Shown here in pieces: positions 461 to 62,847 of a stretch of 64,000 nt of DNA. Location of the stretch: positions 1 to 64,000 of IMG/VR virus record IMGVR_UViG_3300009873_000007; one strand, given 5' to 3'. Position numbers and translations under genes: made by a program. This DNA comes from a virus. Lineage: Duplodnaviria > Caudoviricetes. Below the pieces are notes generated by a model. That model was not told the origin of the DNA and ran no database searches. It saw nothing but the letters and a program-made list of their open reading frames with translations. Positions within the stretch are counted from its first letter, which is position 1; every line of letters starts with the position of its first letter.

Positions 461-1182
461 TGGGGATAAACATGATTGAGTTTGATTGTATTGTCTGTGG
501 AAAACACGTCAAAAAGCGTTGGGCAAAGAATGACACTCGCACGCCAAAGTATTGCTCATTAGTGTGCAAGGCAGCAAAACAGAGAGAGCAAAGACCGGTT
601 GACCGGGAGTGGCTTTATCAAAAATATGTGGTTGAAGGTTTGGACTGTACGGCCATTTCCAAGATTGTCAATCGTAACTCAAAGCGAGTTTGGGAATGGT
701 TGCAAGATTGCGGCATTGAAACACGCAAGCGGGGTCATTCGGCCCCGATGGGATTTGGCAAAGGGCAAAAACAAAAACCAAGACCACAAACGCCAGAGAC
801 ACGAGAAAAAATTCGGCAGGCTAGGCTAAAAGATGGACACGTACCATACCTCAAGAATGGTGTGCATTATTTGAAGGGAAAGCGAGGTGCTGATACGCCC
901 AATTGGAAAGGTGGTGTAACACCAGAGCGGGCCAAAGTCTATGATTCAAAAGAATGGAAAGAAGCGGTCAAGGCTGTATGGGCCAGAGATAATGCAATTT
1001 GTCAACGTTGCGGCAAACACCATAACCAGACCGAATATAGAGGTACATTCGACATTCATCACATCAAAGGGTTTGAATGTGTTGAGCTTCGATGTGAACC
1101 GTCTAACTTAGTCCTTCTTTGTGAAGATTGCCATTACTGGGTGCATAGCAAAGCCAACGAAAGAGGAGAGTTTCTAAAATGA
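460..1182 (+). CDS. HNH endonuclease with Zn-finger and NUMOD3-like DNA-binding segments
   Basis: CxxC motifs, NWKGG, RDNAICQRCG...DIHHIK...NLVLLCEDCHYWVH. Confidence 0.9.
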   Translation: MGINMIEFDCIVCGKHVKKRWAKNDTRTPKYCSLVCKAAKQREQRPVDREWLYQKYVVEGLDCTAISKIVNRNSKRVWEWLQDCGIETRKRGHSAPMGFGKGQKQKPRPQTPETREKIRQARLKDGHVPYLKNGVHYLKGKRGADTPNWKGGVTPERAKVYDSKEWKEAVKAVWARDNAICQRCGKHHNQTEYRGTFDIHHIKGFECVELRCEPSNLVLLCEDCHYWVHSKANERGEFLK

Positions 1183-2099
1183 TCAACGTGATTGAACAAC
1201 AATTCGGCAAAAACTGGGCGGCATATAACGGGGATTCCGTGCAAGTGTTACCAGGCATCCCCGATGAATCAATCGACCTGTCATGTTATTCTCCTCCATT
1301 TTGTGATTTATATGTTTATTCCAACAGTGAATTCGACCTCGGCAATAGCCGCAATGCTGATGAGTTTTTCAACCATTACGCCTTTATCATCCGGCAATTG
1401 CTGCGAGTAACAAAACCTGGCCGCCTGACCTGCGTGCATGTGGCCGACATTCCCGCAATGGCGGTCAAGGACGGCTACATCGGCATGAAAGATTTTCCCG
1501 GCAAAGTGATTGAGGCTTACGAGGCTGCCGGCTGGATTTACCACGGCTGGGCAGTCGTCGAAAAGAATCCGCAAGCGCAGGCTATTCGCACAAAAGCGAA
1601 GGCATTGTTATTTGTCCAGTTGCGCAAAGACAGCACCGCCAGCCGACCGGCCATTCTGGATCGCATCCTGTTGTTTAAGAAGCCGGGTGATAATGCCGTG
1701 CCGGTGACACCGGTCGATAACGGTGAGATTGACAACGAAACATGGATTGACTGGGCCGGCGGCATCTGGACAGGCATTAGCGAGTCTGACACGCTGCAAT
1801 ATCAGAATGGCCGAGATGAAAATGATGAAAAACACATTTGCCCTCTCCAGCTTGGCACAATCGAGCGGTGCATCAAGATGTATAGCAATCCTGGCGAAAC
1901 GGTGCTCGATCCGTTTGGCGGAATTGGATCAACCGGACATGAAGCGATTCGTCTTAACAGAAGTTTCATTGGGATTGAATTAAAGCCATCGTATTACAAG
2001 CTCATGGTCAACAATCTTCAATCTGTTGAGTGGAACAAGAATCGTCCTTCACTTTTTGATTTGGTCGATCTTGTTCAACCATTGCAGCTTGTAGCATAG
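1179..2099 (+). CDS. DNA methyltransferase, N4-C/N6-A beta class
   Basis: SPPF catalytic motif near the N-terminus; VLDPFGGIGST...GIELK SAM-binding motif near the C-terminus. Confidence 0.92.
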   Translation: MINVIEQQFGKNWAAYNGDSVQVLPGIPDESIDLSCYSPPFCDLYVYSNSEFDLGNSRNADEFFNHYAFIIRQLLRVTKPGRLTCVHVADIPAMAVKDGYIGMKDFPGKVIEAYEAAGWIYHGWAVVEKNPQAQAIRTKAKALLFVQLRKDSTASRPAILDRILLFKKPGDNAVPVTPVDNGEIDNETWIDWAGGIWTGISESDTLQYQNGRDENDEKHICPLQLGTIERCIKMYSNPGETVLDPFGGIGSTGHEAIRLNRSFIGIELKPSYYKLMVNNLQSVEWNKNRPSLFDLVDLVQPLQLVA

Positions 2100-3036: not shown

Positions 3037-3209
3037 CCCAGCGTGCATCATCAATAGCGATGGTGCATTGCTGGGAGGTGTAAGCGTTGACCTGGGAAGC
3101 CTCACTTACATCTCTAGTTCCTCTCCCTTTCCTCCTGGTGATGCTGCTGGCTCTGACCTGGCCGGCGGCATCACCTCCACACTGGGAGAATCACAAGGAA
3201 GGTGTAACG

Positions 3210-3968
3210 GTGTATGAACTCAGCTTATTCACAGGAGCAGGCGGTGGATTACTCGGAACTCACTTACTCGGATGGTTTCCGGTCGGATATGTGGAATGGA
3301 ATGATTACTGTCAACGAGTCATTGCCGCCAGAATCAGAGACGGAATCTTACCCAACGCACCTATCTTTGGCGACATCCGAGCATTCATCAGTGAAGGGTA
3401 CGCCGCAAGCTATACGGGACTGGTTGATGTCATTACGGGCGGATTCCCCTGCCAGCCGTTCAGCACAGCCGGGAAACAACTCGGAGCCGATGACGAAAGA
3501 AACATGTGGCCCGAAACAATTGAGTGCATTCGCATTATTCGACCTCGATACGCATTCTTGGAGAACGTTTCAGGCTTGCTTACTAACCGGTACTTTGGCG
3601 TTATTCTCGGAGACTTGGCCTCGGCAGGGTACGATGCAAGATGGTGTGTGCTATCGGCTTGCACCGTTGGTGCGCCACACACACGGGAAAGGCTGTTCAT
3701 TGTGGCCGACGCCGTTGGCGTCCGAGGCGGTGGGAGGCGGCAGCGCAAGGATGGCGCAACGATCACTGAATGGCGAGAAACGGAAAAGCGGAGCAAGTAT
3801 CACATTAAAAGTCGGCGACCTCTTAAGGCTCAAATATGGAATAGTGAAGAAGTCGATATTTTACGAATGGCTGATGGGGTGGGTTCCAAAATGGAGCGCA
3901 TTAGAGCCACTGGAAATGGACAAGTTCCGGCAGTGGTTAGAGCAGCATGGGAATTGTTAACGGCTTAA
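3210..3968 (+). CDS. C5 cytosine DNA methyltransferase, alpha-like chain (motifs I-VIII and X)
   Basis: LFTGAGG (I), GFPCQPFS (IV), ENV (VI), HTRERLF (VIII), ATGNGQVP (X); GTG start at 3210 after AAGGAAGG. Confidence 0.92.
   Translation: MYELSLFTGAGGGLLGTHLLGWFPVGYVEWNDYCQRVIAARIRDGILPNAPIFGDIRAFISEGYAASYTGLVDVITGGFPCQPFSTAGKQLGADDERNMWPETIECIRIIRPRYAFLENVSGLLTNRYFGVILGDLASAGYDARWCVLSACTVGAPHTRERLFIVADAVGVRGGGRRQRKDGATITEWRETEKRSKYHIKSRRPLKAQIWNSEEVDILRMADGVGSKMERIRATGNGQVPAVVRAAWELLTA
3214..3960 (+). CDS. overlapping +1-frame ORF, putative beta-like MTase chain carrying motif IX
   Basis: 248 stop-free codons nested in the MTase; WPTP.AS and EWLMGW.P.W segments resemble the TRD/motif IX missing from the main frame; true start unknown. 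Confidence 0.7.
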   Translation: MNSAYSQEQAVDYSELTYSDGFRSDMWNGMITVNESLPPESETESYPTHLSLATSEHSSVKGTPQAIRDWLMSLRADSPASRSAQPGNNSEPMTKETCGPKQLSAFALFDLDTHSWRTFQACLLTGTLALFSETWPRQGTMQDGVCYRLAPLVRHTHGKGCSLWPTPLASEAVGGGSARMAQRSLNGEKRKSGASITLKVGDLLRLKYGIVKKSIFYEWLMGWVPKWSALEPLEMDKFRQWLEQHGNC

Positions 3969-53187: not shown

Positions 53188-53487
53188 CTACGCTGCGTTA
53201 AGTTCCAACGACAGGGGGAAGGCCGTTTTCTGCTGCCCGCCCCGCCAGACGTTGAGAAAATCGTGCCACAATCGCAACGACTCCTCGTTGTGCTTCACAA
53301 TCCACATCTTTGCGCCGTCAACTACTAGCGCATGTTCCTCCCACACGCCGGATACTTCGTCACCGGCCTTCGCCAACGCCAGCGCAAGAGGCTGGCAGAT
53401 GACCATGTGAGATTTGGCGGTACGCTGCCGCATGGCCTCTAGGCCGCTGTCAAAATCTTCTTGTGTGACGGTCGTCTGGATTTTCAT
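53188..53487 (-). CDS. hypothetical early protein
   Basis: GAGGAG SD. Confidence 0.75.
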   Translation of the reverse strand: MKIQTTVTQEDFDSGLEAMRQRTAKSHMVICQPLALALAKAGDEVSGVWEEHALVVDGAKMWIVKHNEESLRLWHDFLNVWRGGQQKTAFPLSLELNAA

Positions 53488-53559
53488 GTCGTTCTCCTCC
53501 CCGCATCTAAGGCGGCGGGGCTGCCAGTGTGGCCGGGCTAGTTGCTGATTACACTGCGC

Positions 53560-53886
53560 CTATCGTTCGCACAGGTGAGGTGGTAATTTTCCCCCGTTCA
53601 ACTTCTGAAATAGTCCCCCCCCCCAAAGGGGGAGGTTCAGGGCGATAGCCTGCTCGATGGCTTCGTCCTGAATCCAGGGGGGGAGATTATCGGACGCCAA
53701 GAACCACTCACAACCAACCATGTTCCGGTCGTATGCCCCCCAGCGCAAGACCGCCAACATGCGGTCTTGCTCGTCTTTTGGCTCGTTTGCCAAGCCGTAC
53801 CGCTTCTTCGTTTTCGACACAACCGCCAGAATTGTTGGTCGGTCTTCATAATCGCCATCATTCGTTTTGCCAAAATCGATTTTCAT
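53560..53886 (-). CDS. hypothetical early protein
   Basis: AAAGGAGAAT SD within repeat. Confidence 0.75.
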   Translation of the reverse strand: MKIDFGKTNDGDYEDRPTILAVVSKTKKRYGLANEPKDEQDRMLAVLRWGAYDRNMVGCEWFLASDNLPPWIQDEAIEQAIALNLPLWGGGLFQKLNGGKLPPHLCER

Positions 53887-53933
53887 CTCATTCTCCTTTG
53901 CCGCACTGGGCGGCGGGGCTGCCAGTGTGGTTG

Positions 53934-54239
53934 TCAGGCCAGCTTGCTGCGTTCGAATAGTAGACGCTCGGCCAAAGCGAACTCGACTGCGGGATGTGCC
54001 TGCACCTCGACCTTGCAGGCGTGGGCCGGGGTGTCCCAGGCAATCAGGGTGTCCCCCTCGTGGAGGGAGAGTTGGTGGCGAAAGGCCGATGTCGGCTGGC
54101 CTTCTGCGTACTCCGCTCGCAAGCTGTTGACGTAATCTTCCACCGCTGCGGCCAGTGCTTGACGCTGCGCTAGCGTTGGCGGATTTCCAAACACTGGCTT
54201 ATTTTCTGCCAAAAATTGATTGAGTTGATTAAGGTTCAT
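53934..54239 (-). CDS. hypothetical early protein
   Basis: Repeat-associated SD. Confidence 0.75.
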   Translation of the reverse strand: MNLNQLNQFLAENKPVFGNPPTLAQRQALAAAVEDYVNSLRAEYAEGQPTSAFRHQLSLHEGDTLIAWDTPAHACKVEVQAHPAVEFALAERLLFERSKLA

Positions 54240-54270
54240 CTCATTCTCTCCTTTGCCGCACTCTGCGCCG

Positions 54271-54573
54271 TCAATTTCCGTATGTAACTGCGTGCCACAG
54301 CCTGCCGGTGGCATCCCGGCGGCAAGGCCAGCCGTGCGTGCCGGGGCCGCACTGGATACTAATGCAACGGGGGCGGCGAATGCCGTCGGCTTTCGATTTG
54401 TGGTGGTGTGGATTTGGAACTTCTATCACCACCGGGAATCCGCCACGAAGAACGATATGGCTGACATCGGCAAGTGAAAATCCGAATGCTTGCACGGCAT
54501 TTAAAACGATGTCTTTGCCTGCGACTTCGATTAATTCCTGCGTCATTTCGGCATCATATTGTTGGCTGTTCAT
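54271..54573 (-). CDS. hypothetical early protein
   Basis: Repeat-associated SD. Confidence 0.75.
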   Translation of the reverse strand: MNSQQYDAEMTQELIEVAGKDIVLNAVQAFGFSLADVSHIVLRGGFPVVIEVPNPHHHKSKADGIRRPRCISIQCGPGTHGWPCRRDATGRLWHAVTYGN

Positions 54574-54600
54574 CTTATTCTCCTTTGCCGCACTGGGCGG

Positions 54601-54888
54601 CTAGTTGCTGAAACTAAACTCTGCTATCACTCTCTCGACTGCTTCCATGTCTTCCGCCATCCATTGCGGCCAGGTAGCGAAGCCACGAGCTTCGAGTTCG
54701 CTGATGCGCTGGCGAAGGTAGCTGATGGCGTGGCGGAGTCCTTCGGTGTCGCTTAACTCACTGTGGTATAGCCGGTCAACTGCCAGCGTAATTGTCTCTG
54801 TGTGGCTGAGTGTCAGCCGTGATTGCAATTCGTTTAACTGGCGTTCGGTTAACTGATTAATGCGTAGGTTCTTTTGTGTTTTTGCCAT
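54601..54888 (-). CDS. putative ribbon-helix-helix protein
   Basis: KTQKNLRI...RQLNEL...TETITLAVDRLY. Confidence 0.6.
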   Translation of the reverse strand: MAKTQKNLRINQLTERQLNELQSRLTLSHTETITLAVDRLYHSELSDTEGLRHAISYLRQRISELEARGFATWPQWMAEDMEAVERVIAEFSFSN

Positions 54889-54932
54889 GTGCGTCACCCG
54901 GATTGGATTCGGCTCCGGGTGGGCCGAATTCG

Positions 54933-55133
54933 TTAGGCGGTCAGGTTCTCAACGATAATGTCAATCGCTTGTTGTTCGGTGAGTCCGGCGACTTCTTCGC
55001 CGTTGTCGCAGACACTATACGTGCCGTCTGCGTTCAGAACCAGCACCGTGGTGTCTGCTACCGATTCCGGCTCACCTACTGCTACCACATCCATTGCATC
55101 CTGCGCTAATTGTTTGGCTTGTTTGGCGTTCAT
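54933..55133 (-). CDS. small acidic early protein
   Basis: GAAAGGA SD. Confidence 0.7.
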   Translation of the reverse strand: MNAKQAKQLAQDAMDVVAVGEPESVADTTVLVLNADGTYSVCDNGEEVAGLTEQQAIDIIVENLTA

Positions 55134-55188
55134 TGTTCGTTCCTTTCTGTTGGTTGGTGTGCCAGGCGGGGGACACCCGGCGGGGCGC

Positions 55189-55380
55189 TTACTGATTCTC
55201 AATCTGTTCTCGTAGTCGGTACGCATCACGCCGCAATTGATTGCGTCGCTGTGCGGTCTCTGCGTTGCACACATCCGCACGGAAGGCTAGGTCGTTGCGG
55301 CAACGCTCAACAATTACGCTGTCATTCTGCGCCCACGTGGGCAGGTCGCTGGCGTTAAACCTCGTGTTGATGGTGGTCAT
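55189..55380 (-). CDS. hypothetical early protein
   Basis: AAAGGA SD; first gene after a promoter. Confidence 0.7.
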   Translation of the reverse strand: MTTINTRFNASDLPTWAQNDSVIVERCRNDLAFRADVCNAETAQRRNQLRRDAYRLREQIENQ

Positions 55381-55466
55381 TGTTCTTTGTCCTTTGGTTA
55401 TCTCCGGCGCTCGATGGCCGGGTACTCACTCTGTAGAGTCGTTATCTGTTTGCTTCTGATGGATTC

Positions 55467-55495
55467 AGTATAGCATATAGATATACGGTTGTCAA
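55467..55495 (-). promoter_or_regulatory. early promoter
   Basis: TTGACA-17 nt-TATACT. Confidence 0.85.
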
Positions 55496-55515
55496 TAGGG
55501 TTGAGTGACGGGTTT

Positions 55516-55722
55516 TCAAGAAGACGATAATTTTAAGGTTCGCCGCGCCATCGCTCGCCTCACCCGCCGCACCTCCTCCACACTGAGCGAGTTGCGCACC
55601 TGCTGCGCCGTCGCCTGGTGTGGAGTCCAGTAGCCAACTTCGCCGGTATCGGTGAGGGTGGCGATGAGTGCGCCGCCGGCTACGAGTGTGTCGAGGTGAA
55701 CGAGTAATTCTTTCTGCGTCAT
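55516..55722 (-). CDS. hypothetical protein
   Basis: AGGAGG SD inside a terminator arm. Confidence 0.6.
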   Translation of the reverse strand: MTQKELLVHLDTLVAGGALIATLTDTGEVGYWTPHQATAQQVRNSLSVEEVRRVRRAMARRTLKLSSS

Positions 55723-55779
55723 AAAAAAAGCCTCCTGGGTGATTATGAGTGGTGTACTCACTATATCACGACAGGAGGC
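55723..55779 (-). terminator. long-stem intrinsic terminator after the Csx15-like gene
   Basis: GCCTCCTG...CAGGAGGC followed by T7. Confidence 0.75.
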
Positions 55780-55806
55780 GGAAAGACGCAACTCTGGCGA
55801 AACTCG

Positions 55807-56148
55807 TCAGCGCACTGGTCGCACCAGACCGCCCGGCAAAAACACCGGCGGCAAGCCGCGGCTTGCCATGACGATGATGTTGGCGGTCGGAAACCGCCGA
55901 GCGATGTAGCCAGCGGCAACGCTGTGGCCGGGTAAAATCACGCAATCGACGTTGAACGGATTGCCGTGGATTTCCGGCAATGCCAGGGCTTCGTCGGCCA
56001 GGGCATCCAGTTGCGACGTGAGCGGCTGGGCCATGTCCAACTGGACTTTGATGGTATGGACGACGGCATCGCCAGCACCGTACTCGTCGGTGATGATGCG
56101 CTGCGCTTCGGCGTTGAGCGGATGCGAGAAATTGATTACGACGATCAT
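55807..56148 (-). CDS. csx15: Csx15-like (divergent CARF-related) protein
   Basis: INFSHPL start, VQLD..QPL..Q..ALAD, ILPG, G.PP.F match my recollection of Chloroflexota Csx15; AGGAG SD. Confidence 0.75.
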   Translation of the reverse strand: MIVVINFSHPLNAEAQRIITDEYGAGDAVVHTIKVQLDMAQPLTSQLDALADEALALPEIHGNPFNVDCVILPGHSVAAGYIARRFPTANIIVMASRGLPPVFLPGGLVRPVR

Positions 56149-56200
56149 GTTCTGTTCTCCTGATTGATTGTGCCAGGTGGGGGGACCCTGGCGGGGTGGG

Positions 56201-56521
56201 TTAGGGCTTGCGATCTGGATGCAGCACGCACCAGCGATAATGCTGCTGTGGCTGCGCTGGCCGCTCTACATCTGCCAACTCATGGAAGTAATAGCCGTTG
56301 GCGTCTGGCTCGTCGTAATACTTCGCTGTTTTGTAGGTGGCGACGAACGGTTCCCACCAGACAGCACCGCACTGCGGACACCACGATAGCGAGATGTCAG
56401 CGTGAGCCGTGGCAGGCTCACCGAACACTAAGCCTGGCGGTGTGGCAGTCAGCGTGCGCACACTCGTGCGTTTGCGACCGCCACCAGAGCGCCGGGACTT
56501 GCCGGGGCCACCTTTAGCCAT
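56201..56521 (-). CDS. hypothetical protein with CxxC
   Basis: WCPQCG; coupled start. Confidence 0.6.
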   Translation of the reverse strand: MAKGGPGKSRRSGGGRKRTSVRTLTATPPGLVFGEPATAHADISLSWCPQCGAVWWEPFVATYKTAKYYDEPDANGYYFHELADVERPAQPQQHYRWCVLHPDRKP

Positions 56522-56751
56522 TAGACGCTTACCCGTGGGTCATATCTGCCGATGAAAATCCATTCATCGGCGGGCGTCGCATCGGTGGCTACGATAGCTG
56601 CCACCACTTCGTTCTCAGAGGCATACAGGTAGCACGCTTCTGAAATATCGAGATCGGCAACGATCTCTTGAATCGGCGTTGTCAGCGCATACGTGGCAAT
56701 GTCGGGGCCACAGACATCATTTGAGAACTTCTTGGCTGCTAAAACTTTCAC
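56521..56751 (-). CDS. hypothetical acidic protein
   Basis: GAAGGA SD, GTG start. Confidence 0.65.
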   Translation of the reverse strand: MKVLAAKKFSNDVCGPDIATYALTTPIQEIVADLDISEACYLYASENEVVAAIVATDATPADEWIFIGRYDPRVSV

Positions 56752-56797
56752 GGTAATCCTTCCCCCGGTGTACGATGCCCGCCGGGAGGCTCAGAAA

Positions 56798-57028
56798 TTA
56801 GCTCAGAAACGCTGCCGCTGAGGGCTTGACTTCCAAACTATTGTACCGAACGATTTCACGAATCAGACTGTAGTTACCGTTCAGCGGAGCGATTTCGATG
56901 CTCCAAATCTTTTTTTCGGGATTCCAGCGACCACCGGCTTGCTTCATCAGCTTGACGCTACGGCCATCGTAGCTGGTGGCGATGATAAAGAATTTCTTAT
57001 TGGTGTCCGTGCAGATTACGTTGCTCAT
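56798..57028 (-). CDS. hypothetical protein with GGRWNPEKKIW motif
   Basis: AGGAG SD; first gene after a promoter. Confidence 0.7.
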   Translation of the reverse strand: MSNVICTDTNKKFFIIATSYDGRSVKLMKQAGGRWNPEKKIWSIEIAPLNGNYSLIREIVRYNSLEVKPSAAAFLS

Positions 57029-57066
57029 TTTTGCCTCTCCTGAATCACTCCGTTTCTCTGCTATTT

Positions 57067-57095
57067 ATTTTAGCAGAAATAAATAATCTTGTCTA
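57067..57095 (-). promoter_or_regulatory. early promoter with overlapping palindrome
   Basis: TAGACA-17 nt-TAAAAT; TCTGCTA-N7-TAGCAGA inverted repeat. Confidence 0.7.
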
Positions 57096-57140
57096 GTAGG
57101 GGAACCTTAAATTTTCATGCTTTTGCAAAACTCACCACGC

Positions 57141-57173
57141 CAAACAAAAAGCCGCCAGCACCAGGCCGGCGGC
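57141..57173 (-). terminator. intrinsic terminator
   Basis: GCCGCCGGC/GCTGGCGGC followed by TTTTTGTTT. Confidence 0.8.
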
Positions 57174-57180
57174 GAGTGGG

Positions 57181-57459
57181 TTAGGGGTGCGTTGGGGGTC
57201 TGCCAGCACCCTCACGAGCGCCGCCCCACTGTTTTTCATCCGACTGCCCACGCAATTGCCGGGCGGCCTGGGCCAGATGCACCCTCGCCGTCTCCCTGTG
57301 GCATCCCGTCTGCGCTATCAATTGATGACGGAATACTGAGTATTGCGCCTTGCGCGCTGGGCCGCCGGGGATTTGGTCTAGCTGCTCGATTCCAAATTTT
57401 CTGATGATAGCAAGCGCCGCCTCGTGAATCTCCTGATAGCGTTCTTTGGTTGTTGGCAT
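57181..57459 (-). CDS. hypothetical protein with C-terminal GGAREGAGR motif
   Basis: AGGAG SD. Confidence 0.7.
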   Translation of the reverse strand: MPTTKERYQEIHEAALAIIRKFGIEQLDQIPGGPARKAQYSVFRHQLIAQTGCHRETARVHLAQAARQLRGQSDEKQWGGAREGAGRPPTHP

Positions 57460-57818
57460 CAGTAATCTCCTGCATCGTTCGTGGTAGACGGAAACAGGCT
57501 CAGGCGATAGAAGCCTAGCTGCTTGCTCACGCCCAAATCGGCCAGCGGGATAAACTCGTTTTCATCGTGGAACACAACGCCGATTTCGCCATTATCTCGT
57601 GTAATCCAGTGGGCCTGGCCGGATTCCTCGATATATTGTTGAATCACCGAGGCGATCAATAGTTGCTCGCGGGGTAGCGCATCGTCAACGCCGCCGTGCG
57701 TGATGTGTTGGTAGACCAAGCCTCGTTGGTCATCAATTCTAGCGTAGACGGTTCCGGCATCGTAGCCGGTGAGCAGGATTTGAAACAGTTCGTCGTTGTA
57801 TAGGTCGGGATGTGCCAT
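57459..57818 (-). CDS. hypothetical protein
   Basis: Probable ATG at 57818. Confidence 0.6.
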   Translation of the reverse strand: MAHPDLYNDELFQILLTGYDAGTVYARIDDQRGLVYQHITHGGVDDALPREQLLIASVIQQYIEESGQAHWITRDNGEIGVVFHDENEFIPLADLGVSKQLGFYRLSLFPSTTNDAGDY

Positions 57819-57862
57819 ACGATCCTGCCGGTTACAAGGCCACCGGCTGGGCGCATAGTTAT

Positions 57863-58462
57863 TTAATTGCTCATTCGGTCGTAACAGTCCGGGCAAGTTG
57901 TACCCTGGCTGCTCGTCATCACCAACACTTGCGGCACACTATGACCGCAAGCGCAATCAATCAATTTGACCTGTGGCGCGCTACGCTTGCGACGAATAAC
58001 GCCTTTGCTGTGGTCGTAGTAGTAGTTCGGTGAGTCTTGCCACTCGACAGCCTTGCCAGTCAGAAGCAACCGTTTAATTTCCTCCTCGGTTTTGCCGTTA
58101 CGCTCTGCCGCCAGTGTGACGGCTTCCGTCAACGTTTCATCTGTGGCTGGCTTGTAGGTTTTGCCATACATCCCCACATAACCATCGGTGATTTCGTACT
58201 CTGCCGGCTGTAGGGTGATGGTCGGCTTGGGCTGCTCAGACGGCCAAAGCATTTCCCAGTAATCTTCCGGTTCCATTTCTTTTGACGGTGCAATCTGATC
58301 CTGAGTCTCACCGGCTAACTGGTGGGCCTGCTCATCACTCAGGTCTAACACCTTCGCCACGCTGTATAGGATAGCGTCGAAATACTCGTCTAATTCGTCG
58401 TTGCCACGCACCGACTCATTGCGATACTGCATCAATCGCTCAAAAATCTCTTGGCTGGTCAT
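57863..58462 (-). CDS. hypothetical protein with C-terminal Zn ribbon
   Basis: CACG...CPDC. Confidence 0.75.
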   Translation of the reverse strand: MTSQEIFERLMQYRNESVRGNDELDEYFDAILYSVAKVLDLSDEQAHQLAGETQDQIAPSKEMEPEDYWEMLWPSEQPKPTITLQPAEYEITDGYVGMYGKTYKPATDETLTEAVTLAAERNGKTEEEIKRLLLTGKAVEWQDSPNYYYDHSKGVIRRKRSAPQVKLIDCACGHSVPQVLVMTSSQGTTCPDCYDRMSN

Positions 58463-58465
58463 GGT

Positions 58466-58795
58466 TTACTTTCCTTTGCTGATGATTTTCTTGGCGGTCG
58501 TCTTGCCGTACTTGTCGCTGATCTTCGCAAACCCTTTGCGCCCGTAGTGCTGGCGTTGCTTGTGGGCGGCGGCTTCGTAAATCTGCTCAACGGTCTGACC
58601 TAGAAACTGCTCCCACTTCATCGTAACGCCGCCGTGCGCCTTGCTGGCATCATCGCACAAATCCATGTGGGCGGCCAGTTCATCAATCGTTACATTGCCG
58701 AGTGGGTGCGAGTAAGTCATCCCCATCTGCTCGTATCGGGCCTTCGCCGCCTGATGGTCACTCACGATTTTCTCTGCCTGTTGTCGGTTTTTCAT
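58466..58795 (-). CDS. hypothetical protein
   Basis: GGAG SD; first gene after a promoter. Confidence 0.7.
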   Translation of the reverse strand: MKNRQQAEKIVSDHQAAKARYEQMGMTYSHPLGNVTIDELAAHMDLCDDASKAHGGVTMKWEQFLGQTVEQIYEAAAHKQRQHYGRKGFAKISDKYGKTTAKKIISKGK

Positions 58796-58837
58796 TGCTT
58801 GCTCTCTCCGCTTGTCTGTTTGCCGTTCGATGTCTCC

Positions 58838-58866
58838 ATTATAAATCAACTATCGCCAAAATACAA
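58838..58866 (-). promoter_or_regulatory. early promoter with inverted repeat
   Basis: TTGTAT-17 nt-TATAAT; TCAACTA...TAGTTGA palindrome. Confidence 0.7.
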
Positions 58867-58924
58867 GTAGTTGAATTATACGATTGCCCTACGAAATTAT
58901 ACGTTTTGGCGTAGTATTTTGGGC

Positions 58925-58958
58925 AACAAAAAGAGCCGGCTCCCATCAGAACCGACTC
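58925..58958 (-). terminator. intrinsic terminator
   Basis: GAGTCGGTT/AGCCGGCTC followed by TTTTTGTT. Confidence 0.75.
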
Positions 58959-58999
58959 CTTGTGTAAAGCTATGCTTTGGTCCTGCTTGAAACTACAAT

Positions 59000-59098
59000 C
59001 TACACCCTACGCTCAATCCTCACGGGTCTTGCAATTTGCCAAACATCACGATTCCGAAACCTCACACGATAACTGCGACGCCTGCGACGTTGTACCAT
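59000..59098 (-). CDS. 32-aa arginine-rich peptide
   Basis: AAGGAG SD; MVQRRRRRSYRVRFRNRDVWQIARPVRIERRV. Confidence 0.6.
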   Translation of the reverse strand: MVQRRRRRSYRVRFRNRDVWQIARPVRIERRV

Positions 59099-59219
59099 GT
59101 GTTGCTCCTTGAATGTGGCGTTGATGGGGGCTGCTGGGGAGTCTCGCTGCGGGTTCCCCCGTCGGCGCTGTGCGCCACCCGATGGGCGATGCTCCCCAAT
59201 TGAAAATAGCACAATTTTG

Positions 59220-59525
59220 CTAATCTGCAAATTCGACAATTGACCGATTGCGATGAATAGCTGAATGGCATTTATCGCACAGGCATATCGTTGCGCCGAT
59301 CTCCTGCGTCAGCGACCACACATCCAGCCACGCACCGGGGAACATCCGCACAGGTGCGTAACTCGCATGGTGGACTTCCACATCGCTACGCTCATGGCAG
59401 GTTCGGCACTGACGGCCATCCAGCCACAGCCGCACACCTCGCACGAGTTTCCATCGCCACGAGTGCGCTAGATAGTGGCGATAGGCGATCTGTCTATCTG
59501 ACATTGCAGAGACGAAATTAGCCAT
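59220..59525 (-). CDS. small HNH endonuclease
   Basis: DGRQCRTCH...VHHASY...CLCDKCHSAIH. Confidence 0.8.
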   Translation of the reverse strand: MANFVSAMSDRQIAYRHYLAHSWRWKLVRGVRLWLDGRQCRTCHERSDVEVHHASYAPVRMFPGAWLDVWSLTQEIGATICLCDKCHSAIHRNRSIVEFAD

Positions 59526-59976
59526 TGCGCACCGCCGGCAACGCCTTAACCTCATAGCTATTATCGCCGGCAACTAGATAGTATCGGCCATTGTCCATTT
59601 CGATTTGTGCGTTGTGCTTGCGTGCAACCCGGCGCAGGGCTGGCACAAAACCAGGATCGCCAGGTTGCAGCATGGCCGGCTGCCGCCGCACCTGCTCCAG
59701 CGCAATTTGCCCTCGCCACCACAGCACGATGGCGAGCAGGATGATTGCACCGATAATCACCAGCACCCAGGGCAGCATATCCGCCCAGGTGCGGGCAACC
59801 TCCACAGACGCCTGTGATTGCAACTCGGCCACCCTCACGGCGGCATCGGCTTCGATGCGCGCCCGCTCGACATTGCCGAATAAATCAAGGCTGGGGAAAG
59901 CAACGCTAACCCCGCCTGACATTAACACAAAGACGACAGCGACCAAAACCATCAAAACTGCAACGAATTTTGCCAT
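59518..59976 (-). CDS. membrane protein (two TM segments)
   Basis: GGGAGG SD; hydrophobic segments. Confidence 0.7.
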   Translation of the reverse strand: MAKFVAVLMVLVAVVFVLMSGGVSVAFPSLDLFGNVERARIEADAAVRVAELQSQASVEVARTWADMLPWVLVIIGAIILLAIVLWWRGQIALEQVRRQPAMLQPGDPGFVPALRRVARKHNAQIEMDNGRYYLVAGDNSYEVKALPAVRNG

Positions 59977-60020
59977 TTACCCCTCCCCTACCCTACTGGG
60001 TTGATGCTCGGATGACTCGG

Positions 60021-60725
60021 CTACACGAGGCCCGGCTCGGCGGCAACCGAGCGCCGAGCAAATTCCTCTGCCATAGACAAGGCCATGTCTGATGATACCC
60101 CCATACTCCCATTGTTGATGGGCACACCGGCATCGGCTAAGAATTGTCGGGCAGATTCCCATTGATCTCTTGACATCACTCCCGCCGCCATAACTTTATC
60201 TCTGGAAATTGTTCCATTTGTCTCATAGAATCCACATAGAGCAATGACACTCTCCATGCGCCGCCGATCAGCAACTTCAGCTAGTTGAGGGGCTAATTTT
60301 TCATCTTTCAGCAGAGAGCGTGCCCCACTTTTGCCCTCCATATCTAACATGCGCTGCAAAGTCTTGACCTTGTTTTCTGCCCGCAGAGCCAACCTTTTCC
60401 AGTATTCAATTTCCTTTTCCTTTGGGTCAAGCTTTACGTATTCACGATGCAGCGCCTCACTATCATTTAAGGCGATGATGGGTAATGGGCACGGCAGATA
60501 ATCATTCTGCCAACAAATTATCATGTCACAAAACCTATGATCGTGACCATGATTCAGAAAGTTTGACGCCACAAACTCAAATTCTACTGCCCAAACCTCT
60601 CCATTCTTGCGGATTTTTGCATCCGGAAAGGTCAAATCGCTGATCTCGACAAATTCCCATCCTGCTTTTTCAGCTAAAGTCGAAAACAACACAATTACAC
60701 CTTGTTCGTTTTGTGGGATAAACAT
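60021..60725 (-). CDS. PD-(D/E)xK-like nuclease fused to a C-terminal helical domain
   Basis: NEQGVIVLF...FPDA...VEFE..ASNF..HGHD...CDMIICW. Confidence 0.7.
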   Translation of the reverse strand: MFIPQNEQGVIVLFSTLAEKAGWEFVEISDLTFPDAKIRKNGEVWAVEFEFVASNFLNHGHDHRFCDMIICWQNDYLPCPLPIIALNDSEALHREYVKLDPKEKEIEYWKRLALRAENKVKTLQRMLDMEGKSGARSLLKDEKLAPQLAEVADRRRMESVIALCGFYETNGTISRDKVMAAGVMSRDQWESARQFLADAGVPINNGSMGVSSDMALSMAEEFARRSVAAEPGLV

Positions 60726-60733
60726 GACTCCTC

Positions 60734-61498
60734 CTATCTTGCACTTGGCGCAACAAAACCTTCCGGCATTTGACGTTGACGAGCAACGAACTCACGTACT
60801 TTGCCCATAGCCTCTACAGCCGATGAACCGATTATTCCATTCGCCACGGGTACGCCGGAATGCTCCAGCAGGCGCTTGGCAGCCTCCCAGCGGGTGCGAT
60901 CCATTGCGCCCGATTGAATCACCACATCACGACTAATTTTGCCGTGGGCATCCTGAAACCGGCATAGGGCCAGCGCATCGCGCAACGGCTCTGCGTATTC
61001 GTCCTGTGGCAATCGAGGCGGCGCCTTGGGCAACTCATCAACGCCGGTGGTCACACGCACGTTGCGCACCATCTGAGCGTTGGCGATGGAGAGTTCACGA
61101 ATCTCCTGATTGAGTCGGTCATTCTCGTTTTCGAGCGCCTCAATACGCTCGGTGGAATATCCCTCCGCCCAACCCCGCCCCCAGCGGTGAATGAACATTT
61201 GGATTTCGTCTTTGAACGCACGGATCGCACACACCACGCCGAACGCACCGCCTGACCAGTACACTGCCTCCAGCATGATCCGCTCAACCGTGGCTTTGGA
61301 ATTGCCAAAATCAATGCGCCACATCTGCACAGCCACAATTGCCACAAAGAGACCTAGACCGCCGGCCACATTCTGCAATAGCGGCACAAGCACATCGCGC
61401 TCTAGGTTCTGCGTCAGCAAATGCTCGATTACCGGATCGTACTCGGCTTGTGGCGCTTCCGGCGCTACAAATGTACTGGCTGTGTTGTATCTGCGCAT
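60734..61498 (-). CDS. membrane protein with coiled coil and the same C-terminal domain as the downstream nuclease
   Basis: Two TM segments; ALC.F....G.ISRD.V...G.M.R..WE.A...L...GVP..NG shared. Confidence 0.75.
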   Translation of the reverse strand: MRRYNTASTFVAPEAPQAEYDPVIEHLLTQNLERDVLVPLLQNVAGGLGLFVAIVAVQMWRIDFGNSKATVERIMLEAVYWSGGAFGVVCAIRAFKDEIQMFIHRWGRGWAEGYSTERIEALENENDRLNQEIRELSIANAQMVRNVRVTTGVDELPKAPPRLPQDEYAEPLRDALALCRFQDAHGKISRDVVIQSGAMDRTRWEAAKRLLEHSGVPVANGIIGSSAVEAMGKVREFVARQRQMPEGFVAPSAR

Positions 61499-61500
61499 GG

Positions 61501-61926
61501 TCACTCCGATGTCGTACCCTGATACTCGCACTGTTCGAGGTCGCTGACTGTCTGTGGCATCGCCTCGCACAATGCCAGGTCGCCATCAAATGTAACCTCC
61601 ACACCGCCGGCGACTGTACGAACTCGGAACACCTCATCAACGCCATCAATCACAAACACAACCGGTTGCCACTCACCTACCGGTTGCGCTCGTGGCGTTG
61701 GTACGGGTGTGGGCGTCGGTGTGGCTTGCACTGTGGCCGGTTGCTGCATAGACACAGCCGCCTGTACTGGCGCATCGTGACGAGCGTTCAATCGAGACTC
61801 ACCCCAGTACCGCAGACCATAGACGGCAGCGGCGGTCAGCACAATCACGATAAAGATTTTAGCCAGACCACTGCCAGCAGCAGCGGGTTGCGTCGGATTC
61901 GGTGTCACTACTCGATAGGTTGCCAT
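61501..61926 (-). CDS. single-pass membrane protein with Pro/Thr linker
   Basis: TM segment then TPTPTPVPTP. Confidence 0.65.
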   Translation of the reverse strand: MATYRVVTPNPTQPAAAGSGLAKIFIVIVLTAAAVYGLRYWGESRLNARHDAPVQAAVSMQQPATVQATPTPTPVPTPRAQPVGEWQPVVFVIDGVDEVFRVRTVAGGVEVTFDGDLALCEAMPQTVSDLEQCEYQGTTSE

Positions 61927-62190
61927 TATGGTTGCTCCTCGGTCGCACAACCGCTCAATACACTCGTCACCACAGGCGCAGCGGCTTGTGTGTGAGAATC
62001 ATTCGACACGTACAGGGCCAGCACAATGCCGACTAGCAGCAATGTGGTTTTGATAGCGAGTAGCACTAGAATGATTGTTTCTCTGATGTCGATCACAGGT
62101 CGCTCTCCTCACGCATACCGAACATTCCAGCAATCAGTATTATCACAAACGCACCGGCCAGCATACCGGCGAGGAATGCAAGCAATGTTT

Positions 62191-62847
62191 TCATTGTGCG
62201 GCCTCCATTGTGCCATTCGTCTGTTTCAGCCAGTTCGCAATTGTGTTGCGATGTACGCCTAGTTCTTTGGCGATCTGTGGGTAGCTCAATCCCTCATCAT
62301 GCAATTGTTGTGCTCGTTGTCGCTTGTCGATTGTGATTAGCGCATCGGGCAATGGCTCCGATTGTACGTCTTCCACAGCCTGTGGTTGTACCGGTTCCGG
62401 CTCGGTCTGTGGGTCTGTGGTTGTCGCCTTTGTGGTGCGAGTTGTGCGCTTGGACGGCTGCTCAGCGTGTGGCTGTGCTTCCACAACCACATGGCTGTAC
62501 CGTGCAATGGCCGCCGGCAGCGCCACAGACACCAACCAGGACGGCAACGCACCAAACGAGAACAACGAAACATCAATCAAATAGTAGTAGCTCAGATTCA
62601 TCGCAATGCTGACGGCGGCAAATCCGTAGCTCTCGTTTTGTCTGTTTTGCACCACAAACACAAGCACGGCTAGTTCCAGCGCAATGGCAAAGAAATAGCT
62701 ATGGATGTATGCCAGGATGCCGTGCGCATGGCCGATGCCTCTGAACACATCGGCGGCGTGTGGGATTTGAGCCACAAGCGCGAGCACCAACACAATCAGG
62801 ATAGCGTTGGGTGATTTTAGGATGTCAAGAAAGCGGATATTGTGCAT
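62191..62847 (-). CDS. four-TM protein with C-terminal HTH (DUF2637-like)
   Basis: FAIALELAVL...VSIAMNL; GLSYPQIAKELGVHRNTIANWL. Confidence 0.7.
   Translation of the reverse strand: MHNIRFLDILKSPNAILIVLVLALVAQIPHAADVFRGIGHAHGILAYIHSYFFAIALELAVLVFVVQNRQNESYGFAAVSIAMNLSYYYLIDVSLFSFGALPSWLVSVALPAAIARYSHVVVEAQPHAEQPSKRTTRTTKATTTDPQTEPEPVQPQAVEDVQSEPLPDALITIDKRQRAQQLHDEGLSYPQIAKELGVHRNTIANWLKQTNGTMEAAQ

Follow-up and report, generated by a model that had tools for sequence, protein, structure and literature searches.

A short Csx15-like protein lacking the canonical tail, encoded by phages and other mobile elements: a candidate counter-defence gene

We report that a phage contig carries a gene for a divergent, short form of Csx15, a bacterial protein that acts on the cyclic-adenylate alarm signal of type III CRISPR by binding or cleaving it (10.64898/2026.01.21.700848; 10.64898/2026.10.26.761840). 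Both the homology to Csx15 and the Csx15 fold are established, by HMM and profile matches and structure comparisons taken together. This short Csx15-like gene is a credible candidate for a counter-defence gene, and we lean towards reading it as a whole as a divergent short Csx15, present as a stand-alone phage accessory gene, which would sequester a cA4-type signal in the service of counter-defence. The idea of a viral anti-CRISPR Csx15 is not new, since the AcrIII-3 hypothesis is already in print (10.64898/2026.10.26.761840). What is new here, at the level of sequence, is a tail-less Csx15 variant that keeps the head-face histidine and has many relatives on mobile elements.

The window, which is the whole stretch of 64,000 nucleotides that was analysed, makes up the beginning of a 73.7-kb virus record of IMG/VR, which is given there as linear with a completeness of about 54%. 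Genes for a large terminase, a portal, a major head protein, a tail protein, a DnaB-like helicase and a sliding-clamp homologue were recognised in it, and the G+C content of the phage is about 52%. The tail genes and a tyrosine integrase flank a leftward arm of small orphan ORFs to which the Csx15-like gene belongs; the integrase is located beyond the window end, at the far end of this arm. The presence of the integrase on the contig indicates that the phage is probably temperate. The enzymes with family matches that concern us here are the following.

1179-2099, plus strand: DNA methyltransferase (N6_N4_Mtase, 4e-25), near the left end
3087-3968, plus strand: DNA methyltransferase (C-5 cytosine methylase, 9e-36), near the left end
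70899-71852 of the contig (L007:6899-7852), minus strand: tyrosine integrase (Phage_integrase, 3.4e-30, with SAM-like N-domains)

The two methyltransferases (1179-2099 and 3087-3968) may be anti-restriction functions. Also, HNH endonucleases were seen at 460-1182, at 59220-59573 and at L007:6275-6760 (the last one with HNH_3 and AP2 domains), and a SNF2-type helicase (L007:8097-9692) runs off the contig end. From 53188 to 62847 on the minus strand, about 20 small ORFs follow each other nearly without PHROG or Pfam matches, and this region has the look of an accessory arm rich in orphans, of the kind usual for counter-defence genes or morons.

Neither Cas10/Csm1 nor Cas10/Cmr2 was detected in the whole phage record, the control genomes being positive, and the window contained no CRISPR-like tandem array and no Rfam family. 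The first-pass annotation had described a standalone gene for 113 aa with no cas genes or array around it, and this description holds, with no Cas10 in the record and no tandem array in the window. A genome search found exactly one Csx15-like match in the phage record (30.2 bits). The TerL protein has a match at 55% identity on a short contig from a Pseudomonadota MAG, while the head protein shows 25-33% identity to those of Achromobacter, Xylophilus, Caulobacter and Pseudoalteromonas phages; the host is probably a member of the Pseudomonadota.

The Csx15-like coding sequence is the sole long frame with homologues at its place (55807-56148, minus strand). Its start at ATG 56148 is fixed by the homologues, which open with the same MI(V/T)V(I/L)NFSHP sequence, and a Shine-Dalgarno GGAG can be read from the sequence at 56157-56160 (minus strand), 8 nt 5' of this ATG. 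The three motifs quoted in the first-pass annotation are present: INFSHPL at residues 5-11, QLD..QPL..Q..ALAD at 36-52, and PP.F at 100-103. The predicted elements of the surrounding unit are listed below in the direction of transcription.

57151-57173, minus strand: terminator-like hairpin of 9 pairs, 8 of them G-C, with a T-run, closing the preceding unit
57067-57095, minus strand: sigma-70-like promoter, TAGACA-17-TAAAAT with TG before the -10 (extended -10), scoring 10/12 in a consensus scan
56798-57028, minus strand: small ORF 5' of the Csx15-like gene (ORF call)
56521-56751, minus strand: small ORF 5' of the Csx15-like gene (ORF call)
56201-56521, minus strand: small ORF 5' of the Csx15-like gene (ORF call)
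55807-56148, minus strand: intact Csx15-like coding sequence of 113 aa, with ATG at 56148 (ORF call)
55516-55791, minus strand: small ORF 3' of the Csx15-like gene, likely starting at ATG 55722, which is preceded by GGAGG

The predicted promoter probably drives a unit of four or five genes that includes the Csx15-like gene, and the three ORFs on its 5' side are likely to be in this same unit. A family search gave no match for any of these three ORFs within 56201-57028, nor for the 3' ORF at 55516-55791. The ORF at 56201-56521 (minus strand, 106 aa), which may be co-transcribed with the Csx15-like gene, has an N-terminus that is basic and rich in Gly and Arg, as well as a CPQC motif, and it is without a family match. 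The gene had earlier been attributed to an early operon. It is indeed the fourth gene of a leftward run of small ORFs which follows a hairpin and a promoter, but promoter and terminator are pattern matches, so that an early operon is no more than plausible.

Two features close to the 3' end of the gene deserve mention. A terminator-like hairpin of 8 pairs with a T-rich tail (55849-55868, minus strand) lies within the 3' end of the coding sequence, and it could be due to chance or be an internal attenuator. Also, the ORF at 55516-55722 (minus strand) ends with an Arg-rich stretch (EEVRRVRRAMARR) that superficially resembles the C-terminal Arg helix of canonical Csx15. We considered a split gene, in which this 3' ORF would be the missing tail, and rejected it, because the close relatives are of the same length and have different neighbours; the absence of any homologue of the 55516-55722 ORF beside other Csx15-like genes makes such a split unlikely as well.

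The Csx15 family had first been named in the first-pass annotation. When the protein was compared with the NCBIfam model CAS_Csx15 (NF040560), the match was significant (E=1.5e-7) but reached 31.7 bits against a cut-off of 35 bits, and it spanned just model positions 1-77 of 125. The PADLOC Csx15/20 model matched weakly, with E of about 1e-3. No family was found for the protein in PHROGs, nor in Pfam at E up to 10, where just a chance match to Sulfotransfer_3 appeared. This Pfam scan gave no match either to DUF1874, the family of the viral ring nuclease AcrIII-1. HMMER was run exhaustively against 1.84 billion cluster representatives and yielded 63 matches at E <= 1e-3, among which P0038 (ankyrin/DnaJ) and P0062 (PKD repeats) were long false positives and were left out.

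The alignment used in the following, A1, contains 57 relatives, all of which match CAS_Csx15 (best 2.4e-30). Its profile retrieved from the PDB the Csx15 domain of CbCash (9ylu, 9.5e-11) and the Csx15 structures 9teu (5.8e-8) and 9tet (6.4e-7), and nothing else of note. The profile alone succeeded in this, as a single-sequence phmmer search of the PDB sequences gave nothing meaningful. A BLASTP alignment with a canonical-type relative was limited to residues 4-80, and the longer relatives (150-218 aa) showed no recognisable fused domain. The earlier family call is thus upheld by HMM, profile-to-PDB and fold evidence, but for a divergent form, below the cut-off and without the canonical tail. 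Because of this score and the absent tail residues, we describe the protein as Csx15-like and not as an equivalog.

Structure prediction agreed with this assignment. The AlphaFold2 model obtained with A1 (pLDDT 97.6, pTM 0.89) has the Rossmann-like fold of Csx15, in which helices flank a central sheet of five strands, with strands at 2-6, 28-32, 69-71, 90-97 and 102-109 and three helices, and without the C-terminal helix. A structure search of the ESM Atlas returned three Csx15 clusters with TM values of 0.77-0.78 over 108-109 residues, the next match being at 0.61-0.62. The best matches among solved structures were sensors of cyclic oligonucleotides, namely the SAVED domain of Cap5 (Z 7.3) and the viral SAVED protein 9r8s (Z 6.8); other matches were more SAVED domains, Crn1 (Z 6.1) and the CARF domains of Cad1, Card1, Can2 and Csx1. 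Each Z value is middling alone, and the enrichment in SAVED and CARF domains fits the published kinship, Csx15 having been described as a close relative of SAVED (10.64898/2026.10.26.761840). Foldseek found nothing in the PDB at E <= 1e-3. In BFVD, just weak matches (TM <0.5) to small uncharacterised phage proteins were obtained, including K4K6A9 of Caulobacter phage CcrColossus. Phage proteins of the Pam3_gp32-like type (PF23992), with a structural TM of 0.58, came nearest in the language-model feature search of the Atlas; they were set aside, as their feature score of 0.83 is below the meaningful level and Pfam gave them no support. Together with the BFVD matches, they may represent another small Rossmann-like phage family, for which no sequence support was found.

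In order to place the residues of the phage protein on the known structures, we combined the alignments of the A1 profile with PDB chains, which carry seven extra N-terminal residues, and the published residue numbers. The characterised Csx15 proteins are HaCsx15 and CsCsx15 (10.64898/2026.10.26.761840), and CliCsx15 (9teu) and PfCsx15 (9tet) (10.64898/2026.01.21.700848). The two faces of the protein are as follows.

Head-face residues: N6-F7-S8-H9-P10, Q36, P73-G74-H75-S76, F103
Tail-face residues, as inferred from the strand topology of the model: D68, R84, R85, N90, R110, R113

The head face is strongly conserved. Residue H9 aligns with H8 of HaCsx15 and CsCsx15, H11 of PfCsx15 and H13 of CliCsx15, S8 aligns with S9 of PfCsx15, F103 with F106 of HaCsx15, F106 of PfCsx15, Y113 of CliCsx15 and F275 of CbCash, and H75 with F241 of CbCash. 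None of the 57 sequences departs from N6 or P10, and conservation is 90% or more at F7, S8 and H9. The head-face histidine H9 is found in 55 of the 57 relatives and in 50 of the 52 sequences of the short form, and an aromatic residue (F, Y or W) occupies position 103 in 51 of these 52. In HaCsx15, H8 and F106 stack on the adenines and H8 touches the scissile phosphate, and the H8A mutation abolishes cleavage (10.64898/2026.10.26.761840), while in PfCsx15 the H11A mutation abolishes binding (10.64898/2026.01.21.700848). In CbCash, the cA4 pocket of the Csx15 dimer is formed by F241 and F275, and a stacked dimer contributes no contacts (PMC13462974), which makes a head-only binder plausible. We propose that the phage protein dimerises and that its conserved head pocket binds a cyclic oligoadenylate. 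This would most likely be cA4, as this ligand is preferred by all characterised Csx15 proteins and the head pocket is conserved. Residues H9 and F103 would stack on the adenines, with S8 and H75 alongside.

The canonical tail, on the other hand, is absent. Where the canonical proteins present the LHGxxGxFP loop (with H82 in PfCsx15 and H90 in CliCsx15), the phage protein reads ARRFP. The canonical Arg triad (R118, R122 and R125 in HaCsx15, and R116, R120 and R123 in PfCsx15; 10.64898/2026.10.26.761840; 10.64898/2026.01.21.700848) is also missing, since the protein ends at residue 113 and the equivalent positions would be 115, 119 and 122. In HaCsx15, R118 and R125 act in trans across the head-to-tail interface; the R118A mutant shows no binding or multimerisation and the R125A mutant no catalysis (10.64898/2026.10.26.761840). 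The canonical tail is lacking in 52 of the 57 sequences of A1, and about 50 related clusters at 50% identity have the short tail-less form. As far as the alignment tells, the short form is a group of its own and not a broken copy. It carries a signature, with D68 in 41/52 sequences, PP at 100-101, P105, R or K at 110 in 26/52 and R84 in 19/52. These positions and the model suggest that the tail of the short form has been remodelled rather than simply deleted.

Without the His loop and the Arg triad of the tail, and considering the roles of R125 and R118 in HaCsx15, we would expect sequestration of the ligand and at most slow cleavage. Any stacking of dimers would go through the remodelled basic tail (R84, R85, R110, R113), and this relocated tail might restore a composite active site. 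Taken further, this leads to a true and efficient ring nuclease, in which H9 would meet, within a head-to-tail stack, a basic partner at a new place on the tail face (R110 and/or R84), and cA4 would be degraded as it is by canonical Csx15. The frequencies of H9 and of the tail-face residues in the short form agree with such an enzyme, and viruses are expected to prefer degradation over sponging (10.64898/2026.01.21.700848). Nevertheless, we regard this as possible but rather doubtful: the catalytic R125 and the binding residue R118 of HaCsx15 are without aligned equivalents, the conservation of H9 is no proof of catalysis since the H11A mutant of PfCsx15 shows that the histidine is needed for binding, and the tail face has been placed from topology.

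A conserved head with a missing canonical tail would also suit a dominant-negative cap, that is a head-only dimer which docks on cA4-loaded filament effectors (Cash, CalpL, SAVED-CHAT, Cap4/5) and stops their growth. Head-to-tail stacking activates Csx15 and SAVED proteins (10.64898/2026.10.26.761840), and CbCash polymerises on cA4, though cA4 does not bridge the stacking interface (PMC13462974). We consider such a cap highly improbable, as the conserved tail-face residues of the short form argue for a functional tail. A broader conjecture is that the short tail-less form is a distinct Csx15 lineage, found mainly on phages and other mobile elements and exceeding in size the published set of "over 20" from viruses, whose members work in another way than cellular Csx15, as filament-free dimer sponges or as filament caps; we think this unlikely. 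If it were true, an isolated-dimer sponge or a filament cap would constitute a new anti-signalling mechanism in a known fold.

Sequestration of a cA4-type signal by a divergent short Csx15, which is the reading that we prefer, also has to be examined in the light of where the relatives live. The neighbourhoods of 12 relatives from 11 families (two of them from one cluster) were viewed, three contigs being too short for much to be seen. About 9 of the 11 sampled neighbourhoods were phages, prophages or a plasmid-like element, and no cas genes were found in any of the 11. The settings were the following.

P0002 (65% identical): integrase, cI-like repressor, several small genes in a row
P0008 cluster: portal and capsid genes
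P0011: protein-primed DNA polymerase
P0013 cluster: 56-kb siphophage contig with Dit and tail genes
P0017: tape measure protein and methyltransferases
P0022: ParM-like, FtsK-like and LexA-like genes (partition set)
P0026 cluster: phage DnaN, ThyX and ParB-like genes
P0063 (canonical type): integrase, cI/Cro-like genes and Dam
P0061 (canonical type): part of a MAG that resembles a prophage
P0037: chromosomal orphan

The gene is thus found in unrelated phages, among which it is mobile. An all-against-all comparison of the retrievable homologue loci revealed no common gene besides the Csx15-like one, which therefore behaves as a self-sufficient mobile accessory gene; a two-gene system was rejected for the same reason. 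The canonical-type genes at L010:10001-10375 and L011:10001-10375, with their HGRxG loop and Arg triad, were also located in prophage-like regions, one with an integrase, cI/Cro-like genes and Dam, and the other with an HTH repressor followed by small ORFs. Both the long and the short forms of Csx15 consequently occur on mobile elements. As the sample is biased towards query-like sequences, "mostly viral" is to be taken as an indication and not as a census. The search for homologues in phages found relatives in phages and prophages, but none in GenBank phages: by tblastn, the gene was absent from GenBank phages and from PLSDB plasmids. Pattern-based scans of viral, genome and metagenome contigs gave zero confirmed relatives.

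In a maximum-likelihood tree, the five sequences with the canonical tail fell within one clade of six (support 100/96), whose sixth member, P0065, is without the tail. The phage protein belonged to a supported group with P0002, P0003 and P0018, and the remainder of the tree was an unresolved bush. The first-pass annotation had seen in the gene a captured off-switch of the host. This view found no support, as the nearest relatives are on phages and other mobile elements and lie in a bush apart from the canonical-tail clade.

The same neighbourhoods bear on whether the gene serves counter-defence. It might instead be a prophage or lysogeny damper of host type III autoimmunity directed at the integrated phage, or a nucleotide-binding protein of unrelated role. 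The phage has an integrase, several relatives (P0002, P0063, P0061) lie in prophage-like regions, P0037 is a chromosomal orphan, and damping by cellular Csx15 has been proposed by Chi et al. (10.64898/2026.01.21.700848). However, the gene is also carried by contigs of apparently lytic type (P0008 cluster, P0013 cluster, P0017), and damping of cyclic oligoadenylate (cOA) to the benefit of a prophage would be mechanistically the same activity. We consider a role other than counter-defence very unlikely.

The short Csx15 of this phage can be compared with several known systems. With the Csx15 proteins of NF040560, it shares the Rossmann-like fold, the size class, the head histidine in NFSH(P), the aromatic residue equivalent to F106/Y113 and the PGxS loop, and it is likewise a stand-alone protein without effector domain. 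In contrast to them, it scores below the cut-off, has neither the LHGxxGxFP loop nor the C-terminal Arg-triad helix, presents its own signature (D68, PP at 100-101, P105, R110) and is encoded by a phage, away from cas genes. Like vCsx15, the proposed AcrIII-3, it is a virus-encoded Csx15 homologue from metagenomes, and for both the anti-type III role is a proposal; whereas the published set was gathered by BLAST with canonical queries, the short form described here comprises about 50 clusters at 50% identity. The Csx15 domain of CbCash (9ylu) is the best PDB profile match, with F241 and F275 aligning with H75 and F103, but Cash is a sensor fused to a Schlafen tRNase, with NFLQP in place of NFSHP and a longer C-terminus. 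The viral SAVED ring nuclease AcrIII-2 (9r8s), a viral remover of cA4, is the second-best structural match (Z 6.8 over 99 residues), and differs by being a fused double domain of 235 aa. AcrIII-1 (DUF1874) also removes cA4 for viruses, but with an unrelated fold. Finally, the likeness that we propose with Acb2, Tad1 and Tad2 is that of a small stand-alone phage protein which would sequester an immune second messenger; the folds are unrelated, and the signals taken up by these three are those of CBASS and Thoeris.

Among solved structures, the folds closest to the phage protein are SAVED domains of CBASS, and we also considered that CBASS, or another cyclic tri- or dinucleotide pathway, is the target rather than type III CRISPR, so that the protein would be an Acb-like anti-CBASS factor. 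The similarities of TerL and of the head protein make the phage look associated with Pseudomonadota, in which CBASS is commoner than type III CRISPR, and this counts for such a target. Csx15 enzymes cut 3'3'3'-cAAG and 2'3'3'-cAAA besides cA3-cA6 (10.64898/2026.10.26.761840). On the other side, the host assignment is weak, the characterised Csx15 proteins prefer cA4, and Csx15 is found together with Cas10 far more often than with cyclases of CBASS (10.64898/2026.10.26.761840). We find a target of this kind distinctly unlikely.

Under the sequestration of a cA4-type signal that we favour, binding would lower the free signal and so blunt the type III CRISPR effectors activated by cOA. CBASS could be affected too, since Csx15 enzymes cut such signals as well. 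Two precedents concern activities of this type: PfCsx15 is a cA4 sponge with slow cleavage at most, and CliCsx15 relieves cA4-dependent immunity in vivo (10.64898/2026.01.21.700848). Chi et al. argue that sponging would not serve a virus well against type III systems, which produce cOA in large amounts (10.64898/2026.01.21.700848).

The first characterisation of Csx15 dates from 2026. According to Chi et al. (10.64898/2026.01.21.700848), who cite the work, Hoikkala et al. reported no Csx15 among 28,114 phage genomes, and from this absence Chi et al. suggested that Csx15 may have no anti-CRISPR use (10.64898/2026.01.21.700848). In October 2026, Klimavicius et al. described one viral Csx15 in NCBI, from Lokiarchaeota virus Skoll (URC17498), and more than 20 from IMG/VR and env_nr (10.64898/2026.10.26.761840). 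They found viral Csx15 to be rare and mostly in prophages, and proposed the name AcrIII-3, the activity being undemonstrated (10.64898/2026.10.26.761840).

The gene of this phage and the about 50 related clusters suggest that a shortened Csx15 has spread among unrelated phages and other mobile elements. In this form, the head pocket for the ligand is kept and the catalytic tail is replaced. If the protein had no effect on cOA, its conserved NFSHP pocket would need a different ligand. If it neutralises cOA signalling, it would constitute a third viral anti-type III family, and the short form would be a test case provided by nature for telling which half of the composite Csx15 site is enough for binding and which one is enough for cleavage.
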